Of a stretch of 64,000 nucleotides of DNA, positions 3,062-21,300 are shown in pieces. The stretch covers positions 58,815-122,814 of IMG/VR virus record IMGVR_UViG_2936984999_000001; one strand, written 5' to 3'. A program made the position numbers and the translations under genes. The stretch's first letter is position 1, and the number at the start of each line of letters is the position of its first letter. Below the pieces are notes generated by a model that saw nothing but the letters and a program-made list of their open reading frames with translations, did no database searches and was not told where the DNA came from. This DNA is from a virus. Lineage: Duplodnaviria > Caudoviricetes.

Positions 3062-4255
3062 ATGGGTATTACATTAACTAATGAAGAATTTCAAGAAAAG
3101 TTTTATAATAAATTTGATAAAAACGAGTATACACTAATTTCTCAATATACTGGTGGATCTAATTTTATAAGAATTAGACACAAATGCGGATATGAATTTG
3201 AGAAAAAGCCTAAAAATATAATTACACCAAGAGAACATCTTAATTGTCCAAAATGTTTTGGAAAATTATATACTAAGGTAATTCCTGGAATAAATGATAT
3301 GGCAACAACAAATCCAGAACTAATACCATTACTAAAAAATCCAGATGATGCTTATAAGTATAAAACTAATACAAATAAGAAAATATATTTTATATGCCCT
3401 GTTTGTGGTAATGAAATATATAAAACAGGAAACGAAGTATATATGCATGGATTGCAATGCAAGTATTGTAGTGATGGATTTAGTTACGCCGAAAAATTCA
3501 TGAAGTCTATATTAAGCCAACTTGGAATTAACTATATACATCAATATAATCCTGATTGGGCACAACCATATAGATATGATTTTTATTTTAAATTAGATGG
3601 TAAAAAATATATTATCGAAATGGATGGTGGAATTGGACATGGGAATTTTACTCGTGATGGCAAACAAGACGTTATTGGAAAACAAATTGACGACAAGAAA
3701 GATACACTGGCAAAATTACATAATATAAATGTAGTTCGAGTTGATTGCAATTATATTGATATAGAAAATAGATATAATTATATAAAAGAACATATTTTAA
3801 TTTCTGAAGTGGCTCAAATCTTAGATTTATCAAAAATAAACTTTTCTTTATGCCGTATCGTTGCAGAAAAATCAATATTTATTTCAGTTTGTGATTTAGT
3901 TAAACAAGGAATGCGAAGTTTTGTAGAAATAGCTGAGAAGCTTGAAATATCAAATACCACTGTAAGTAGATATTTAAAAACTGCTTGTGAATCTGGATAT
4001 CTTGATATAGATTATAACGATCTCAAACAACAATCCCTTGATATTGGATATCAAAAGAACAAACAACGAAACGAGAATCGTCCAAATGGATTTAATCGTA
4101 CTCCTGTTAAATGTATTGAAACAGGTGAAATATTTAATTCTATGGATGCGGCGGATAAAAAATATGGCGGATGTGTAAGTAGTTATTTATCTGGATGTAT
4201 AAAATATACTGGTCATTTAGATGACGGAACAGTTCTTCATTGGGAACGAATTTAA
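3062..4255 (+). CDS. Free-standing putative homing endonuclease (zinc ribbons + PD-(D/E)xK/Vsr-like nuclease + HTH + NUMOD1-like end)
   Basis: CPKC/CPVC/CKYC motifs, YRYDFYF..IIEMDGGIGH..DDKKD nuclease motif, EIAEKLEISNTTVSRYL HTH, VKCIETGEIFNSMDAA; more AT-rich than its flanks. Confidence 0.75.
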   Translation: MGITLTNEEFQEKFYNKFDKNEYTLISQYTGGSNFIRIRHKCGYEFEKKPKNIITPREHLNCPKCFGKLYTKVIPGINDMATTNPELIPLLKNPDDAYKYKTNTNKKIYFICPVCGNEIYKTGNEVYMHGLQCKYCSDGFSYAEKFMKSILSQLGINYIHQYNPDWAQPYRYDFYFKLDGKKYIIEMDGGIGHGNFTRDGKQDVIGKQIDDKKDTLAKLHNINVVRVDCNYIDIENRYNYIKEHILISEVAQILDLSKINFSLCRIVAEKSIFISVCDLVKQGMRSFVEIAEKLEISNTTVSRYLKTACESGYLDIDYNDLKQQSLDIGYQKNKQRNENRPNGFNRTPVKCIETGEIFNSMDAADKKYGGCVSSYLSGCIKYTGHLDDGTVLHWERI

Positions 4256-4263
4256 AATCATTC

Positions 4264-4292
4264 AGAACCTTCTATAACGAAGGTTCTTTTTT
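4264..4292 (+). terminator. Intrinsic terminator-like hairpin
   Basis: agaacctt-loop-aaggttct followed by a T run. Confidence 0.6.
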
Positions 4293-4324
4293 ATTGCCTA
4301 AAAATATTAAAGGAGGAAACCGAA

Positions 4325-4870
4325 ATGGCATCTAATTTCGAAAAATATTTATACGACAAACATGGCGTATTTCATGCCACATTAATGCACGCAACTGATA
4401 TTCCAAGTGCATTTTACACAATGGTTAATAAAGATGCAGAGATGGAAAATGGTTCTGTATCTGTTCTGAAGCCAGAGAATTACGTAGAGGACGATGTATT
4501 TAAGGTAGAGGCACCAAAGATTACAGATAAAATTGTAATTCTTGCAAATGATGTAAAAATCTACGAAGAGTACACAAAGAGAATGCAGGAAGAGTCCCAG
4601 TATTTTATTGGTCAGGGAGAAAGAATTCGTGCATTTGAAACATTTGAAACAGACAGATTTAGCCTTTCTAAAGAAGCTTTCAAGGATGAAACAGAGGTTG
4701 AAGTTGGCAAATATGTTGTTGTTGATGGAACTGGTTTCAAATTAACAACTGTTGCTGAAGACCCAAATAAAACAGCTGTAACGCATGGTTTTGTTGGCTA
4801 TATCTACAAGCAGTGGCCAAACGGTGAATATGCAGTATTCGTTAAAAGAAATGCTGCAGTTGAAGCCTAA
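4325..4870 (+). CDS. Putative head decoration/capsid stabilising protein
   Basis: Strong RBS; 181 aa immediately upstream of the major capsid gene. Confidence 0.55.
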   Translation: MASNFEKYLYDKHGVFHATLMHATDIPSAFYTMVNKDAEMENGSVSVLKPENYVEDDVFKVEAPKITDKIVILANDVKIYEEYTKRMQEESQYFIGQGERIRAFETFETDRFSLSKEAFKDETEVEVGKYVVVDGTGFKLTTVAEDPNKTAVTHGFVGYIYKQWPNGEYAVFVKRNAAVEA

Positions 4871-6051: not shown

Positions 6052-6073
6052 ATGAATGAAAGGAAAAATAACT

Positions 6074-6736
6074 ATGAAAGTTTTTGAGCTTGCAAAAGAA
6101 ATTGGTGTACCAAGTTCAGATGTTGTAGCGCTATTAAAGGAAAATGAAGTTCCTGTAAAAAATCATATGACTCCACTTTCTGATGAAGCAATTGAAATGG
6201 TAAGAGCCAATTATATTACGGTTCCGGACGAACCTGAAAAAGTAGAGGTAAAAGAACCTAAAAAAGTAGTAAAAACAGACGCAGATTACAGACCAGAGGA
6301 AATGATTCCATGTAGGTCACTTTTTGCCGGTGTACTCTTGTTTACAGGTGATCATACACATATGACATATGCGTTTAATGGTGCTGGTGACAGACGAAAT
6401 ATTGAGTATCAGGATTTAAAAGCTGCAATGCTTCAACACAAAGGTTCTATATTCGATCCAGATATTATTATTGAGGATGAAAATCTTATTAATGACGAGC
6501 ACTGGTTTGAAGTAAAGGAAGTTTATGAAAATATGTTTAACGAAAAAGATATTGAGAAAGTAATGAACCTTCCATATCGTGATTTTGAAAAAGCATTTAT
6601 TCAGCTTCCAATTACAGCCAAAAAAAGAATTATTACTACTTACGCTACACAGATGGAAAACGGTACATTTGAACAGTGGAACAAAGCGAAAATCATTGAC
6701 AAAGTTTGTGGTACTCGTTTTGATCTGAAAATGTAA
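6074..6736 (+). CDS. Phage head-region protein with an N-terminal IF2_N-like domain
   Basis: MKVFELAKEIGVPSSDVVALLKENEVPVKNHMTPLSDEAIE resembles the translation initiation factor 2 N-terminal repeat; RBS aaagga favours the ATG at 6074. Confidence 0.65.
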   Translation: MKVFELAKEIGVPSSDVVALLKENEVPVKNHMTPLSDEAIEMVRANYITVPDEPEKVEVKEPKKVVKTDADYRPEEMIPCRSLFAGVLLFTGDHTHMTYAFNGAGDRRNIEYQDLKAAMLQHKGSIFDPDIIIEDENLINDEHWFEVKEVYENMFNEKDIEKVMNLPYRDFEKAFIQLPITAKKRIITTYATQMENGTFEQWNKAKIIDKVCGTRFDLKM

Positions 6737-7545: not shown

Positions 7546-9509
7546 ATGCCTACCTTTAGAGAGATGCAACAACTATATGCGAATATTGGAACGGTTGGTC
7601 AACAGATTAAAAAACAATCTGATGATGCTATGGAAGCGACATGGGATAATTCTATCGCATCAAGGGTTTGTTACATCTATGATTATTATCATGATGACTC
7701 TCCTACTTTGAATAGAAATATTACCTATGGACCATACACAACCAAAACTCGTATTGATGCAAAATTTATTGTCAAATCTTATAGCTCACTGGATAAAGAC
7801 CAGATTGAGTATTATCTACAATTTAAACCAAGTCAGAAGACACAATTCGAACCAACTGATGAACTCTATTATTTTGAAACAGATTACAGACGAAAATACG
7901 GATCAGACGATTTTGTAGGAATGTATTGTGATGTAGCTGATGATCAAGGTATTTATCATAGATGGCTTATCTGTACAAAAGAAATAGGCAATCAGTTTGT
8001 CAAATATAATATTCTTCCATGTGATTATTGGTTTCATTTTATTGTAAAGAAAAACGGTAAACGGTATAAACGGAAAATTTGGGGAGTGACGAGGACACAA
8101 TCCTCGTACAACAGCGGATCTGTTACATGGTCCTTCCCATTAGAAATAAGGGGAAATCTATCCTTTGAATTGCTGGAAATTCCTAAAGACAATTAAACTA
8201 CAACGCAAGTATGAAATATAACTAACCGTGAATGTGGCGAAAGCAGAAAAAATTAATTGTATGAGAACGAGGTTAAAACCCCTGTTCTCTTTTTTAATGG
8301 AAAATCAGCAGCGAAGCCTCGAATAGAGGAACGTTCAACGACTAAGCTACCTAAGTAGGTACTGTGGAGGACATCCGAAAGGATGAAGATATAGTCTGAA
8401 CTTCTTTCGAAAGAAAGAGAAAACCGAAAGGTCTTATTTGAATTAACGAATCAAATAAGTAACGCATTTGTATGGACTGATAAGTAATTGTCCACTGCAT
8501 TTGGAAACTGTGCAGTGAATTTCTTCTAATTGCTGGAAACTCTTTAGAAATTTGTAAACTACAACGCAAGCATGAAAAATGGCTAATCGTGAATGTTAAA
8601 AATTACAAATATTAGATAATCAGCAGCCAAGACTCGAATAGAGTAAGGTTCATCGACTATTATGTAGGACAAGTGTCCGAAATGGAGAACACCTAAACCA
8701 CAAGGCATGGTGAAGATATAGTCAGCACTTCATATGAGAATATGAGAAAAGCATTCGTGCTCTTTTGCAGCTTAACGAACTGTAAAAGTAACATAAGGTA
8801 TTACTCTACTTCCACTGAGAGCCAGTTTAAGGCAATCGTTCCGTTAAATCCAATTACCGAAGATATCTACTATGTAGAAGAAGACAATAAAAATATGCGT
8901 ATAATCATTTCTGCACCTGTAGAAAAACCAAATGTATTCCAGATAAGTAAAGTTGAAACAGCTCCACTATTTGGATTAAAGAGACTTACTTTTGCACAGG
9001 ATAAATTTGATCCTTATACAGATGGTAGAGATGATGTTGAAATTGCTCAAGGCGACATTTTTGCTATGTATGCAGATTTATATGACAATGAAGTACCTAC
9101 TGATACTCCATTCCATACAGATAGTGAGATAAAAATGGATACTATTCATTGTGATTTATCATGTAATGCCAATAAGATTAAGATTGGCGGTAGTTATAAG
9201 TTAATTACTGCAAAATTCTTTAATATACAGGGAAGTGAAATTACAGATGAATTTATTCCATATTTAGCAAAAAGCAGCTGGTCATGTTATGTAAAAAATA
9301 ATAGACATGAAGACCCAGATGAAATCGAAGTCACAGATAATACTGATTTAATCACCTGGCTAGAACAAAAAGAAAGCAATAAAATTAAAATTAAAATAGC
9401 AGACAATAAAGAGTATTTAACGAAAATTCTTGTAATTAAATGCTCTATAAATAAAAATGGAAGAAATATTGTTGGAGAAATTCAACTTCAAATTTCATCC
9501 GTATTATAA
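7546..9509 (+). CDS. Head closure/neck-type protein, spliced: join(7546..8119,8471..8481,8799..9509), about 431 aa
   Basis: Removing two group I introns restores one frame reading ...SSYNSG-LWTD-YYSTSTESQF...; function inferred from position. Confidence 0.75.
8120..8470 (+). ncRNA. Group I intron (351 nt, no ORF)
   Basis: P AATTGCTGGAAA 8168, Q AATCAGCAG 8303, R GTTCAACGACTA 8333, S AAGATATAGTC 8386; P1 exon GGAU with GUCC (8130-8133); terminal G8470; P10 catg/tatg. Confidence 0.88.
8482..8798 (+). ncRNA. Group I intron (317 nt, no ORF)
   Basis: P 8528, Q 8618, R GTTCATCGACTA 8648, S AAGATATAGTC 8713; P10 agtaat/attact; terminal G8798. The 5' site could alternatively be after 8478, which is also in frame. 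Confidence 0.85.
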
Positions 9510-15301: not shown

Positions 15302-18300
15302 ATGCCTAATGAAGATTTTAGTATAAAAACTGGTATAGAGGTTGATGATAGTGGAGTCAGCCAATTAAAAAGTATTGCTGATGAGCTTGAAAAAACAGCG
15401 AAAGCTTTACAGAAAATTAATAACGTAAAATTTAATGGTGATATTTTCTCTGGGTTGACAAATGCAGGAAAAAATATTCAAAACGTCACTAAAGAGATTG
15501 ATAAATTACAGAAGTCTGCCAATGGTGCTGGAAAACCATTAACCAACATTGGAAAAGGCGCAGAAAGTATTGTTTCAGGAAACTCAAAGCAGTTTACATT
15601 ATTAGATTTAACTTCTATTGATGTAATTAAATCAAGTATGAGTGAAATTGCTGCTTCTGCTCAAAATCTTAAAGAAGCATTAGGATCAGAAGTTACTTCC
15701 GGATTAATGACTCAGATTGATGCTATGTTGGCGAAAAAAGATGAGTTACAGAATCTTGCGAATATTTTAAAAAGCAATAAGGAAGATTTAGGTAAAGCTG
15801 CGAAAGCAACTGGAAGTAGTAATAAAAAATCTGCAAATAACACATCATCTTCCACTTCTACTAAAACCCCAAAATATATAACTGATCAGTCTTATGTTGG
15901 TGATTATAAGACACTTGCAGATAATGAAGCTTTTGTTCATACTCTTAGTACGTTTAGACATAATACAACAGAAGCTCAAGCCGCCATAGAAGAACGAAAT
16001 AAAGTTATGGCAAGAGTAAACGCAAAAACACCACAGAACACTTCTGAAATAAATGCAAAGCAGAGATTTGATGATATTGATAAGACTATCACAGACAATC
16101 TTAGTAAATACGGAGATCGAATTCAGAGCGCTTATAATGCTTTCGACAAGATAAAGGCTGACAAAAGTGGCATCGCTGGAATTGAAGATGTATTTAAATC
16201 CAGTGAAGAACAGATAAACAAATGGGCTACTGCTGTCGCAAAAGGCAAAATGAGCATTGGTGAATTTGAGAAGAAAGTCAGTGGGCTAAGTGGATCTGTT
16301 GGCAGTATTGGTAAAATCATCGATCCTGCAAGTATTACAGATGCAAAAGGTGAATTGGAAAGTTATCTAAGAGAGCTTACCAATGTACAGGATATTACCT
16401 TTAGTGGATTTACAGAAAAAAATGGAATTGTTTCACTCAAAGGTACATTTAAGGATAGTGCCGGTGAAGCGCAGACTTTAAGTGTTCAATTAAATACACT
16501 GAATGGACAGATTAAAAATCTTGGAACTTCTGTAAAACCTGTTGAAAGTGGACTTAGCAAATTCTTCTCAGGTTGGAAAGAAAAAATGGTAAACCTTGCC
16601 CAATATTTGACTTCATTCCAGGCAATGAATCAAGTTTGGAATACGTTCAAACAAGGTTTAGAAATAGTTAAAGAGTTTGATACTGCTCTTACAGAAATGC
16701 GAAAAGTATCAGATGAGCCGATCAGTAAGCTAAAAGAATTCCAAAAGGAAAGCTTTGATATGGCAAAGAGCGTTGGTACTACTGCTCTGCAGATCCAGAA
16801 TAGTACGGCCGATTTCATGCGTTTGGGACAGAGCATGGAAGAGGCAAAGCAGTCCAGTATGAATGCTAATATTTTAAAGAATGTTTCGGAATTCGATAAT
16901 GTCGATGATGCAACTTCTGCACTAATTTCTATGCAAGCCGCATATAAAGACTTAACACAAACAGAATTAATTGACAAACTAGACAATATTGGAAACCGGT
17001 ATGCTGTAGCTACTGACGAGCTTGCAACTGGTTTACAGAAATCCGGTGCTACGCTCAGTTTAATGGGAAATAATATTGATGAATCCGTGGCGTTATTAAC
17101 TGCAGCGAACAGTCAGATTCAGAATATTGATACCGTGGCAGCCGGGGAAAAAGTAATTTCTTTGCGTATCGCAGGTAGGTTATGCCTGAACATACTGGAA
17201 GGTATGGGTGAATATTTATATTTACTGGTTGATAACTATATCGGTGGAGGTCTGGGGACAGATAATACCGAGGTAAGACCTATATTTATATAGGAAACCG
17301 TAACGACTGCAGGATGTGTGTGGTAACACATGTGTTGAAGTTATCCGTCCTTTTTCTATAAGGATGTAATATACAGTCTGAACAGCCGAAAGGCTCTTTT
17401 ACATTTCTTAGTGTAATCGTCACGCAATAATCCAAAATTTTATGAAACGTGAGACATAGGTAGAAATTCCTATGCGCCATATTTATATGGTTGGTAAGGT
17501 TTGTGATAAACCTGAAAGTAACAACTTGACAGAAGAAGCAAAGAAAGAACTTGAAGAGCTTGGTGAAGACACATCTGACTATGTTGTCGCAACTAAGGCA
17601 AAGAAGCAACAAATTATTAAGGATTATACTGCCGTAGCTTCTAATGGTGGAAAAGGTGTAGATATTCTTGATGCGAATGGTAACTATAAAAACATGTTCG
17701 AGATCATGAATGAAATCGGTTCAATCTACGCAGAATTACAAGCCGAAGATAAAAAGTATGGCGAAAATCGAAGTATGGCACTTATCGAAGAGTTAGCCGG
17801 TTCTAACCACAGTTTTAGCCGGATTATGTAGAAATGCATAATTAGAACATATTTAATTGCAGGTAAAGCCTTATGCTTTGCACCACAATAATGGAGAAAT
17901 CACATTATGAAGGTTTAAAAACACAAAGATTGGCAGATCTGCAGCGAAGCACCCTAACGTATTCCGTAGATCGTACGGTACTTGAGCCGAGGGTGAACGT
18001 TCACAGACTATTCCCATATAGGGAATCAGAAATATCATTATTCGATGATTATAAAATAAAGGTGGAAATCCTGAATATCTGATTCATTAGAAGTACGGCG
18101 TAATCGCAAATGACGTTGGTGAAAAGCCATTAAATGGAAACGGTATGCTTGCTGCTCTTTTGGGCGTGAGTAAGAAATAGTCGAAACTGACATGAAGAAT
18201 GTCAGATATTTTTTTGTATGGAGAAAAATTAAAAATGGATAAAAAATTTGATAAAGAATATTCAACACAATGGATTAAAGAAGTTAAGTGGCTTTCATGC

Positions 18301-21300
18301 CATAATGTTCGCTTTACGTTCGTAAAAAGAGATACGAATGGAATAACAATTTATAAATATAAAAAAACACATCAATTATTTTCTGCACTTGCAGAATTTT
18401 ATTGTAGAAATGGAGATTGACATAGTAGTGACAGAATTAAATAATGAAATTGAAAACAAAATATTAGAGTTATTTGATAAGGGATTGAACATAAAAAATA
18501 TCAATAGTGAATTAGGACTTGCTGATGGTGTTGTAACAAAATGTCTAAATAAACACGGAATTACAGATACAGGTTGGAATAACCCATCAAAAAGATATTA
18601 TTCGAAATTAACGGATGAACAAAAAAGAGAAATCGAAGATATGTATAGGGATGGACGACTGAAAGAGATTTTAAATATACATCCTACGTTAGAAAAGAGT
18701 TTTCTATATAATTTAATGTCAAGAAACAAAATAGAAAATGGCAAATATTTCTGGACCGAAGAAGATACAAACTATTTGAGAGATAATATTGGTTTGGGAT
18801 ATGATAAACTTTTTAAATATTTTTCTGGAAGACATACTAAAAAAGCCATAGAAACTAAAGCTAAGAAAATGGGATTAGCAAAACCCCAATATTGGACTGA
18901 AGATGAATTGAATATAATGAGAAAATACTATTCAACTATTCCAAAAGAAGATATTAAAAAACTGCTTCCAAATAGAACATGGAATTCTATCGTATTAAAA
19001 GGTAGTAATTTAAAAATAAAATCTCACCATTACCTTAATGAAAAATATTCTGAAAAAGAAGAGAATTTTATAAAAGAAAATTTTGGTAAGATGACAGATG
19101 CTGAAATTGCAAAAGCTATAGGAAAAACAATCCATGGAGTATGTGATAAAAGGCGTTTACTTGGTTTATATTATTTTGATAAAAATTATTCTAAATATAA
19201 CGATATTTCAAAATTCTTTCGAGCGCATATCTATGATTGGAAAGAAAACTCTATGAAACAATGTAATTATCAATGTATATTTACAGGCTCTAAAGATTAT
19301 GCAATTCACCATATAATAAGTTTCAACACTATTCTCTCAGAATTCTTTTCATATATTGAATCTAAAAATCTTTTAAAATCCAATAATTTAAATGATTACT
19401 CAAAAGAAGAACTTGATAATTTAATAAAAATATTTAATACAGTACACGACAAATATCCACTTGGTATTTGTGTACGAAAAGATATACATAATTTATTCCA
19501 TAATATTTACGGAAGTGGTGGAAACACAAAAGAACAATGGGATATATTTTCAGAAAAATTTTCAAATCATGAATACGACAATTTAATAGCGTAAATTTTT
19601 ATCCATGCAAAAAATATAGAGATGTGTTGCGAACATCTTTTAATAAAATTGAAAAACAGATCCAACGTTGCTTCAGCTATACTTAACAACTATGATTTAT
19701 TAGATAAAGTAAAGTCTGATTCTGAGCAATCTTCTGGAGCGGCACAAGAGGAAAATGAGAAGTATCTTGAAAGTATTGAAGCCTCCATAGCCCAACTTCA
19801 AACACAGCTCCAAGAGCTTGCAACAGTAACAATCAACAGTGATATGTTTAAAGGCGTAATAGATACAGCAACTGCCTTTCTTAACATCGTAACTCAGATC
19901 CTGGATAAACTTCCACTGCTCTCAACAGCAATTGGAGGATTCGCAGGATTTAAACTTTCACAAGCAGGTCTGGGTAAACAGCTTAACATAAACCATAAAG
20001 CTAGTTTCAATTCAAAATTTTATCGTAGTTAAGATGCCCATTTGATATGCTGCTGTCATAATCGCGACAGTTAGTATAGAACTTGTTCAAGATGGTGATT
20101 CGACACCTATTGACAGACCTTTAGCCTTAGAGCTATAAAGCCGAATATCGGAGGAAGCCGTAATCCACATCACTGTGGTACCTTAGTTCTGAAAATGAAT
20201 GAAAGGGATATATTGAAGATGGTAGTTCCGACACGTTAGCAAACACATATGTTTAAATTTACAAAAGTGGATGATAAAATTCACGAATAAAACGCAATTA
20301 TAACAGGAAGAAAGAAATAGAGAGCAGAAAGTTGCAGGTAACAACTCTCCACTCTCTTAAAAGACTAAAAGGAGATTACAAAAATATGAACTAAACTATT
20401 TATTATTTTGGGTGTCATCCTTATAGAATTCTCCAGACATGTCAAATCCTTTCAGAAATCCAAAATGGATGTGAAAGTTTTTCATGTTCTTAGATGGTAT
20501 TCTGCGGATTAACGACCATAGGATTAATAATCCTACAAGAGTTAAAACGAATAGAAATACATCTTCCATATCTCACCTCCTTCCTGTACGAAAGTATCAA
20601 GAAAGAGATTTGATGTTGGGGAGAATCCCATAGAAATGAATATAATATTTAGAGTACTTCATTTTAGACAATCTCATTTCTGGTACAAATTGCGTACCAT
20701 TAATTCAGTACTACATGACGACTGTCAGATATACTGTCGTGCAGCGGATCACAATGTAGACCTGTGACCACAAGTATATCTGACTTTGATTGTAGTATAA
20801 TTGTCCATTTTTGTAAATCCAGAACATATGTGTTTTCATGTAAAAGTGTAGTTTTACAGTTAACGTGCGAGAGGCTGACAAGGCGTATTATGTGTGACGT
20901 TACAACATATAGTACAATATACAGTCCAACCAGGGAAAGCCTGGGTAGCATGATGGGTCGAATAGTATAGATAGAACCGTGAGGTTACTACTCTCCTACT
21001 ACCTGAAATGCACTAACTGCACACATTCACCACGGCTTGCAAACGTGGTGTTTTTATTATTTTATTGAAAAAGAAGGTGAAGATTTTTATGCATATAAAA
21101 ATTTTTGATTGTGATATTTTCATTGATACTCACGAAATATCAATAAGTGATCATTCTGGTGAAAGCAGTTATAATTCATTTAATAAAAAACCTATTGACA
21201 CATGTGTTATTAAAGAAATTATAGAAGAACACTTATTATTTAATACTTCCAAAAGATTTAATGATCTTATTACTCAAGGCGAAGGTTTAATTGCGTAATT

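Follow-up and report, generated by a model that had tools for sequence, protein, structure and literature searches.

In the tail tube gene orf142 of Staphylococcus phage Twort, the self-splicing group I introns 2 and 3 flank an exon of 23 nt, and exon skipping has been reported (Landthaler & Shub 1999, as summarized in PMC10136302 and PMC11878797). A small exon has also been described for phiNIT1 (PMC11878797). In the 23S rRNA of Coxiella burnetii, the dissimilar introns Cbu.L1917 and Cbu.L1951 enclose an exon of 34 nt, for which the summary in PMC10136302 likewise records exon skipping (Hicks et al. 2011). Exons of 12-15 bp lie between introns in the mitochondrial cob, cox1 and cox2 genes of Armillaria (PMC6506933).

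The window analysed here, which takes up the right-hand end (64 kb) of an IMG/VR phage record of 122.8 kb, contains a gene in which two group I introns (I1 and I2) are separated by a micro-exon. With a probability of roughly 80%, we consider that the two introns were acquired independently, 11 nt apart in the most conserved codons of a virion gene of an uncultured SPbeta-like phage, and that both are excised to give a protein of 431 aa. The parts of the gene are as follows.

7546-8119, plus strand: exon 1 (191 codons and one base, ending ...AGC GGA T; U8119 is the 5' splice-site base)
8120-8470, plus strand: I1, an ORF-less group I intron of 351 nt with terminal G8470
8471-8481, plus strand: micro-exon TATGGACTGAT (11 nt; the last two bases of a Leu codon followed by Trp-Thr-Asp, ending at U8481)
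8482-8798, plus strand: I2, an ORF-less group I intron of 317 nt with terminal G8798
8799-9509, plus strand: exon 3 (236 codons and a stop, matching phrog_5251 positions 156-234)

Exon 1 appears in the ORF listing, matches positions 11-130 of the phrog_5251 profile and is colinear with the intronless genes P0001 and L010, and exon 3 shows 68% identity to P0001 throughout its length. By these profile matches, exon 1 corresponds to one half and exon 3 to the other half of a single phage protein family. Joining of the three exons yields 431 aa with the sequence ...SSYNSG-LWTD-YYSTSTE across the junctions. An in-frame stop follows 25 open codons in I1, and TAA is the second codon of I2. Direct joining of exon 1 to exon 3 gives SG-LLLYFH-stop, which bears out the claim of the initial annotation that only double splicing keeps the frame and that skipping of the micro-exon leads to a stop within seven codons. 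The junctions of both introns are unable to slide because the bases flanking each junction differ.

Comparisons with intronless homologues showed that the 11 nt are a coding exon, as had been proposed. The homologue P0001 (429 aa, from the Logan contig at locus L001) reads SSYNSGLWTDYYSTSTE and aligns with the spliced product without gaps, and at the DNA level the colinearity is maintained, base by base, through the two junctions. Both P0001 and L010 read SYNSGLWTDYYST, gap-free and also colinear at the DNA level. The alignment that the initial annotation had suggested as a check thus contains the expected WTD-like segment, SYNSGLWTDYY, in both genes. Distant homologues read SG-RWLD-RY and TG-KYRD-HY at the micro-exon, again without gaps. 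The micro-exon is contiguous with exon 1 in the alleles without I1 (L005, L011-L013 and L015) and with both exons in the intronless L010 and L001. Two other readings of the boundaries were considered and rejected. A twintron, in which one intron lies within the other, was rejected since the intervening 11 nt are coding: they directly continue exon 1 where I2 is the only intron, and the intronless genes have them too. A 5' splice site of I2 after GGAC (8477), which would match a more stable hairpin, was rejected since no 3' site then restores the frame of the intronless genes.

Both introns match the Rfam model RF00028 (threshold 50 bits) over model positions 1-253, I1 at 8112-8419 with 82.3 bits (E 2e-19) and I2 at 8459-8746 with 72.9 bits (E 1e-16). 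Beyond these two, the 64-kb window has no Rfam match at the gathering threshold; this includes the tape measure region at 17802-22476, where group I introns with cores split by large inserts would be expected to escape the search. The ORF listing shows no ORF of at least 60 aa in either intron except read-through from the exons. The description of I1 and I2 as two complete ORF-less group I introns therefore holds. RNAalifold analysis showed compensatory changes in 34 of the 80 pairs for I1 with its relatives, and in 31 of the 68 pairs for the nine introns at the I2 site. The U-G wobble at the 5' splice site is kept in six of the seven aligned introns of the I1 set and in all nine of the I2 set. 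The internal guides are located as follows.

8126-8133, plus strand: internal guide of I1, read from the sequence
8484-8493, plus strand: internal guide of I2, with P1 pairs G-C, A-U and U-G invariant in nine of nine introns at the site

P1 of I1 is formed by GGUCC (8129-8133) and GGAUC (8116-8120, with the splice site after U8119), includes the wobble pair U8119-G8130, and has its columns kept in six of seven aligned introns. P10 of I1 comprises four base pairs between CAUG (8126-8129) and UAUG (8471-8474), and CAUG is kept in L014 and L048. P1 of I2 is formed by UUGUC (8488-8492) and GAUAA (8479-8483, with the splice site after U8481), closed by a GUAA loop and including the wobble U8481-G8490; in the nine-intron alignment, its intron-side pairs covary and its three exon pairs are invariant. 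P10 of I2 comprises five base pairs between GUAAU (8484-8488) and AUUAC (8800-8804). The micro-exon is shared between the two introns: its first four bases pair in P10 of I1 and its last three (8479-8481, with 8490-8492) in P1 of I2, leaving four between them. The proposed double role of the micro-exon as P10 partner of I1 and P1 partner of I2 is thus matched by pairings present in the sequence. With a full core, a U-G wobble, a terminal G, a P10, covariation and restoration of the frame, I1 and I2 have the sequence hallmarks of group I introns, and both are predicted to be self-splicing.

The guide of I2 also has partners other than its own splice site. GUCC occurs in both guides and is able to pair with GGAU of exon 1, as the initial annotation had noted, and GUCC of I2 (8490-8493) is complementary to GGAC of the micro-exon as well. 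With exon 1 GGAU, the I2 guide forms four pairs, compared with three with its own UGAU. The same guide is a perfect fit in relatives whose exon ends in GGAU (L041 and L052). The productive P1 of I2 with its three exon base pairs is predicted at -2.1 kcal/mol, compared with -5.2 kcal/mol for a non-productive UGGAC/GUCCA hairpin, which exists in I2-only alleles too. Because the I2 guide fits the 5' splice site of I1 better than its own, exon skipping in this gene is plausible.

For comparison of alleles, 39 related loci were taken from IMG/VR, the eleven closest with 93-97% protein identity over exon 1. The sister phages carry four states of the gene.

No intron: L010 (also L001)
I2 with a LAGLIDADG ORF: L011, L012, L013 and L015 (a 1.06-kb insert at the I2 site)
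ORF-less I2 alone: L005
I1 and I2: L006-L009 and L014; also the ENA contig L048, which ends inside intron 2

The LAGLIDADG ORF of the second state encodes 323 aa (Pfam LAGLIDADG_3 at 6e-16), and its host intron is 81% identical to I2. The ORF (for example within L011 3586-4948, and likewise in L012, L013 and L015) has N-terminal helix-turn-helix motifs. Its last five codons (SFAA-stop) form the 5' strand of a conserved 3' hairpin, a stretch that is kept in the ORF-less I2 (TCTTTTGCAGCTTAA).

The alleles without I1 read GGC CTC TGG ACC GAT at the I1 site, compared with GGA T-TA TGG ACT GAT in the twin alleles, where the hyphen marks the position of I1. The silent changes in the twin alleles create the GGAU and UAUG that pair with I1. 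When IMG/VR was scanned for exact junction patterns, five twin junctions came up but none with I1 alone. Since an I1-only allele was not found, I2 was probably already in place when I1 arrived. Conceptual splicing of each of the five twin alleles in IMG/VR yields 431 aa free of stops. The twin alleles are confined to phages with exons 90-97% identical and I2 copies 96-99.7% identical. Their introns are 95-99.7% identical to those of the window, compared with 81-94% at third codon positions. Because the introns are more conserved than the third codon positions, the ribozymes could be under constraint or could have spread recently by horizontal transfer.

The two introns lie in SYNSGxWxD, the most conserved stretch of the family. 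Many database 'proteins' stop within this stretch, a hallmark of introns. At least six insertion positions, including the two of the window, fall within the 27 nt that encode it. Insertions in related genes are as follows.

After SY and one base: L022; probably also L040, L042 and L043
After SYN: L052 (40 bits)
After SYNS: L050 (58 bits)
After W and two bases: L042 (27 bits, weak)
After D: L027, L041, L052 and L053

L052 (1699-2240) has a divergent group I intron (40 bits) after SYN, then an 18-nt exon AGTGGAGTCTGGCAGGAT (SGVWQD), and then an ORF-holding intron of 98 bits; L042 seemingly has two introns around about 20 nt. Since L052 also has it, as L042 seemingly does, the twin layout has arisen more than once in the gene family. 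The introns of L040 (about 3548-4802), L042 (about 3548-4809) and L043 (about 1626-1896) follow TCGT (Ser-Tyr). For these three, no boundaries were found that combine a U before the intron, a terminal G and the reading frame: under the usual rules, with the terminal G positioned from homology to I2, the TCGT-AACAA join creates an in-frame TAA, and a frame-keeping junction needs a terminal A. L022, which bears a related intron, has normal boundaries. As a consequence for annotation, gene calls routinely break it up into two or three pieces.

In related contigs, the neighbours of the gene are YonB-like and YomU tube-like genes, and the gene lies within the virion gene block at every related locus with neighbours listed. 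Its location between the YonB-like and the YomU tube-like genes places the host gene in an SPbeta-type virion module. The AlphaFold model of P0001 (pLDDT 86.6) shows an N-terminal domain followed by beta-rich C-terminal domains, and the conserved motif and the intron sites are located in a low-confidence linker (residues 187-201). The C-terminal part matches Ig-like folds; a Foldseek search of the PDB yielded nothing beyond generic matches of Ig-like type. The N-terminal domain resembles the neck chain 8vhx_F of phage Chi (VIA-align, Z 9.1, r.m.s.d. 3.3, 109 residues), one among many Ig-like matches. The modelled product thus probably begins with a neck-type domain and continues with Ig-like ones, the label 'neck-type' being tentative because this is the sole neck match among many Ig-like ones. 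No homologue of the exon 1 protein was found in the phage database, Pfam gave no match for exon 1 or exon 3, and megablast of the gene returned nothing but intron similarity to two Bacillus phages.

Two further observations concern the surroundings and the protein family. Just 5' of the virion genes, a 226-aa ORF (window 6056-6736) has an N-terminal IF2_N domain (PF04760, 1.2e-9), which is odd for a phage structural module. The ENA protein P0002 (590 aa) combines an unrelated N-terminal part of 435 aa with the last 155 residues of the gene product at 95% identity, and is probably a chimera of assembly or gene calling.

For each intron, some 140 phage records show 70-76% identity; the hosts of these phages include Staphylococcus, Bacillus, Enterocloster, Clostridioides and Vibrio, among others. 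I1 shares 68% identity with the portal-gene intron of LY2, a Bacillus phage, and equally with an intron from an Enterocloster phage, and is ~73% identical over 180 nt to the tail tube intron of Staphylococcus phage phiIPLA-RODI, a Kayvirus related to Twort. An extra GGUUAAAnCC hairpin is found in I1 and in the LY2, Enterocloster and Kayvirus tail tube introns, and is absent from I2. None of these three, the closest relatives of I1 in the database, is annotated as an intron in GenBank. The LY2 intron (L044, vB_BceH_LY2, ON366411.1, 112.5-114.3 kb) splits the portal gene, and two ORFs inside it are annotated 'transposase'. The intron of Enterocloster phage CB457P2 (L045), unannotated in GenBank, adjoins an I-TevI-like ORF, and that of phiIPLA-RODI (L046), also unannotated in GenBank, is positioned just 3' of the annotated tail tube CDS. 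The phage studied here has a third group I intron (locus L004, G000:C1:42750-42994; RF00028, 58.5 bits) ~16 kb before the window, whose identity to I1 and I2 is no more than 44-47%.

The initial annotation had taken the long blocks shared by I1 and I2 to suggest a related origin. The blocks are indeed present in the alignment of the two introns; however, they are conserved core elements of a large phage intron class, present in well over 100 phage introns, and so do not support the suggestion as it was phrased. A closer relationship, in which I1 is a local copy of I2 made by tandem duplication or by reverse splicing at a similar-looking site 11 nt 5' of I2, would account for GUCC in both guides, for the sequence GAU^UAU at both insertion sites in the spliced RNA, and for the fact that the sole blastn match of each intron within the genome is the other. 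In a tree of 16 introns the branching is star-like, and a clade of I1 and I2 is neither supported nor rejected (AU test, p 0.088). However, I1 and I2 are only 60% identical in one alignment with their relatives, which makes a local duplication unlikely because I1 is nearer to the introns of other phages (68%), with which it also shares the hairpin that I2 lacks. A duplication inside such a narrow phage clade should leave more than 90% identity; therefore, I1 and I2 are read as separate arrivals, and we regard local copying as quite improbable. In the preferred reading of two independent acquisitions, each intron has its own complete core, guide, U-G wobble and terminal G, and the 431-aa protein requires the removal of both. 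I2 is the version without an ORF of a mobile intron that, at the same site in sister phages, encodes a LAGLIDADG homing endonuclease; driven by this endonuclease, it would have arrived first, and its ORF would since have been lost in some alleles. I1 belongs to a different branch of that phage intron class, and its entry into an I2-holding allele is the most likely course.

The weak P1 of I2 with its more stable competing hairpin, together with the lack of an endonuclease ORF in both introns, could also be expected if one or both introns were splicing-dead and the gene a decaying pseudogene. This is very unlikely, since the exons are in frame and stop-free in the window and in five complete twin alleles despite third-position changes of up to 19%, the cores, U-G pairs and terminal Gs are intact with the introns more conserved than silent sites, and the gene keeps its place in the virion block. 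Another explanation gives the pair of introns a regulatory role, with exon skipping or partial splicing setting the ratio of an N-domain-only isoform of ~197-216 aa to the full-length virion protein. The introns fall exactly in the segment that links the N-terminal domain to the Ig-like part, the I2 guide pairs better with the 5' splice site of I1 than with its own, and exon skipping is reported for Twort orf142 and phage SIOphi in the accounts of PMC10136302 and PMC11878797. However, some sister phages have the gene with no intron (L010) or with a single one (L005 and L011), so an isoform mechanism is not required, and we give it a low probability. If true, ribozymes would here carry out alternative splicing that serves a structural end.

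Short exons between self-splicing introns are a natural test of how a ribozyme chooses its splice site near a similar second site. The sister phages provide a ready-made comparison set (no intron, I2 with endonuclease, I2 alone and both introns), in which the splicing order and exon skipping are directly testable. The SPbeta-like virion gene is added to the list of intron hot spots.

The gene most closely resembles Twort orf142, in that two phage-class group I introns in one virion gene flank a very short exon and the pairings of guides and exons permit exon skipping, which is reported for Twort in the secondary accounts and is here a potential seen in the pairings. The exon is about half as long as that published phage example (11 nt compared with 23 nt), the introns are 60% identical whereas those accounts describe the Twort pair as highly similar, and the host gene family differs. 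The two dissimilar group I introns around a short exon in Coxiella burnetii 23S rRNA are also comparable, but they reside in a bacterial rRNA gene rather than a phage protein-coding gene, and the exon, in the account cited, is three times longer. Other multi-intron phage core genes likewise contain several group I introns, with a small internal exon found by cDNA only and skipping seen, and the closest database relative of I1 is from a Bastillevirinae phage (the LY2 portal gene). Unlike those genes of DNA metabolism and terminase, the gene analysed here belongs to the virion, and its sister phages between them display all four allele states. The Armillaria mitochondrial genes have exons of similar size, which result from dense intron insertion into conserved codons; however, they belong to organelle genomes with a different intron history, and splicing there is often protein-aided. 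Thus, the kind of arrangement is already known, and what is new is a compact example with a complete natural allele series and an I2 guide that fits the wrong site more closely than its own.
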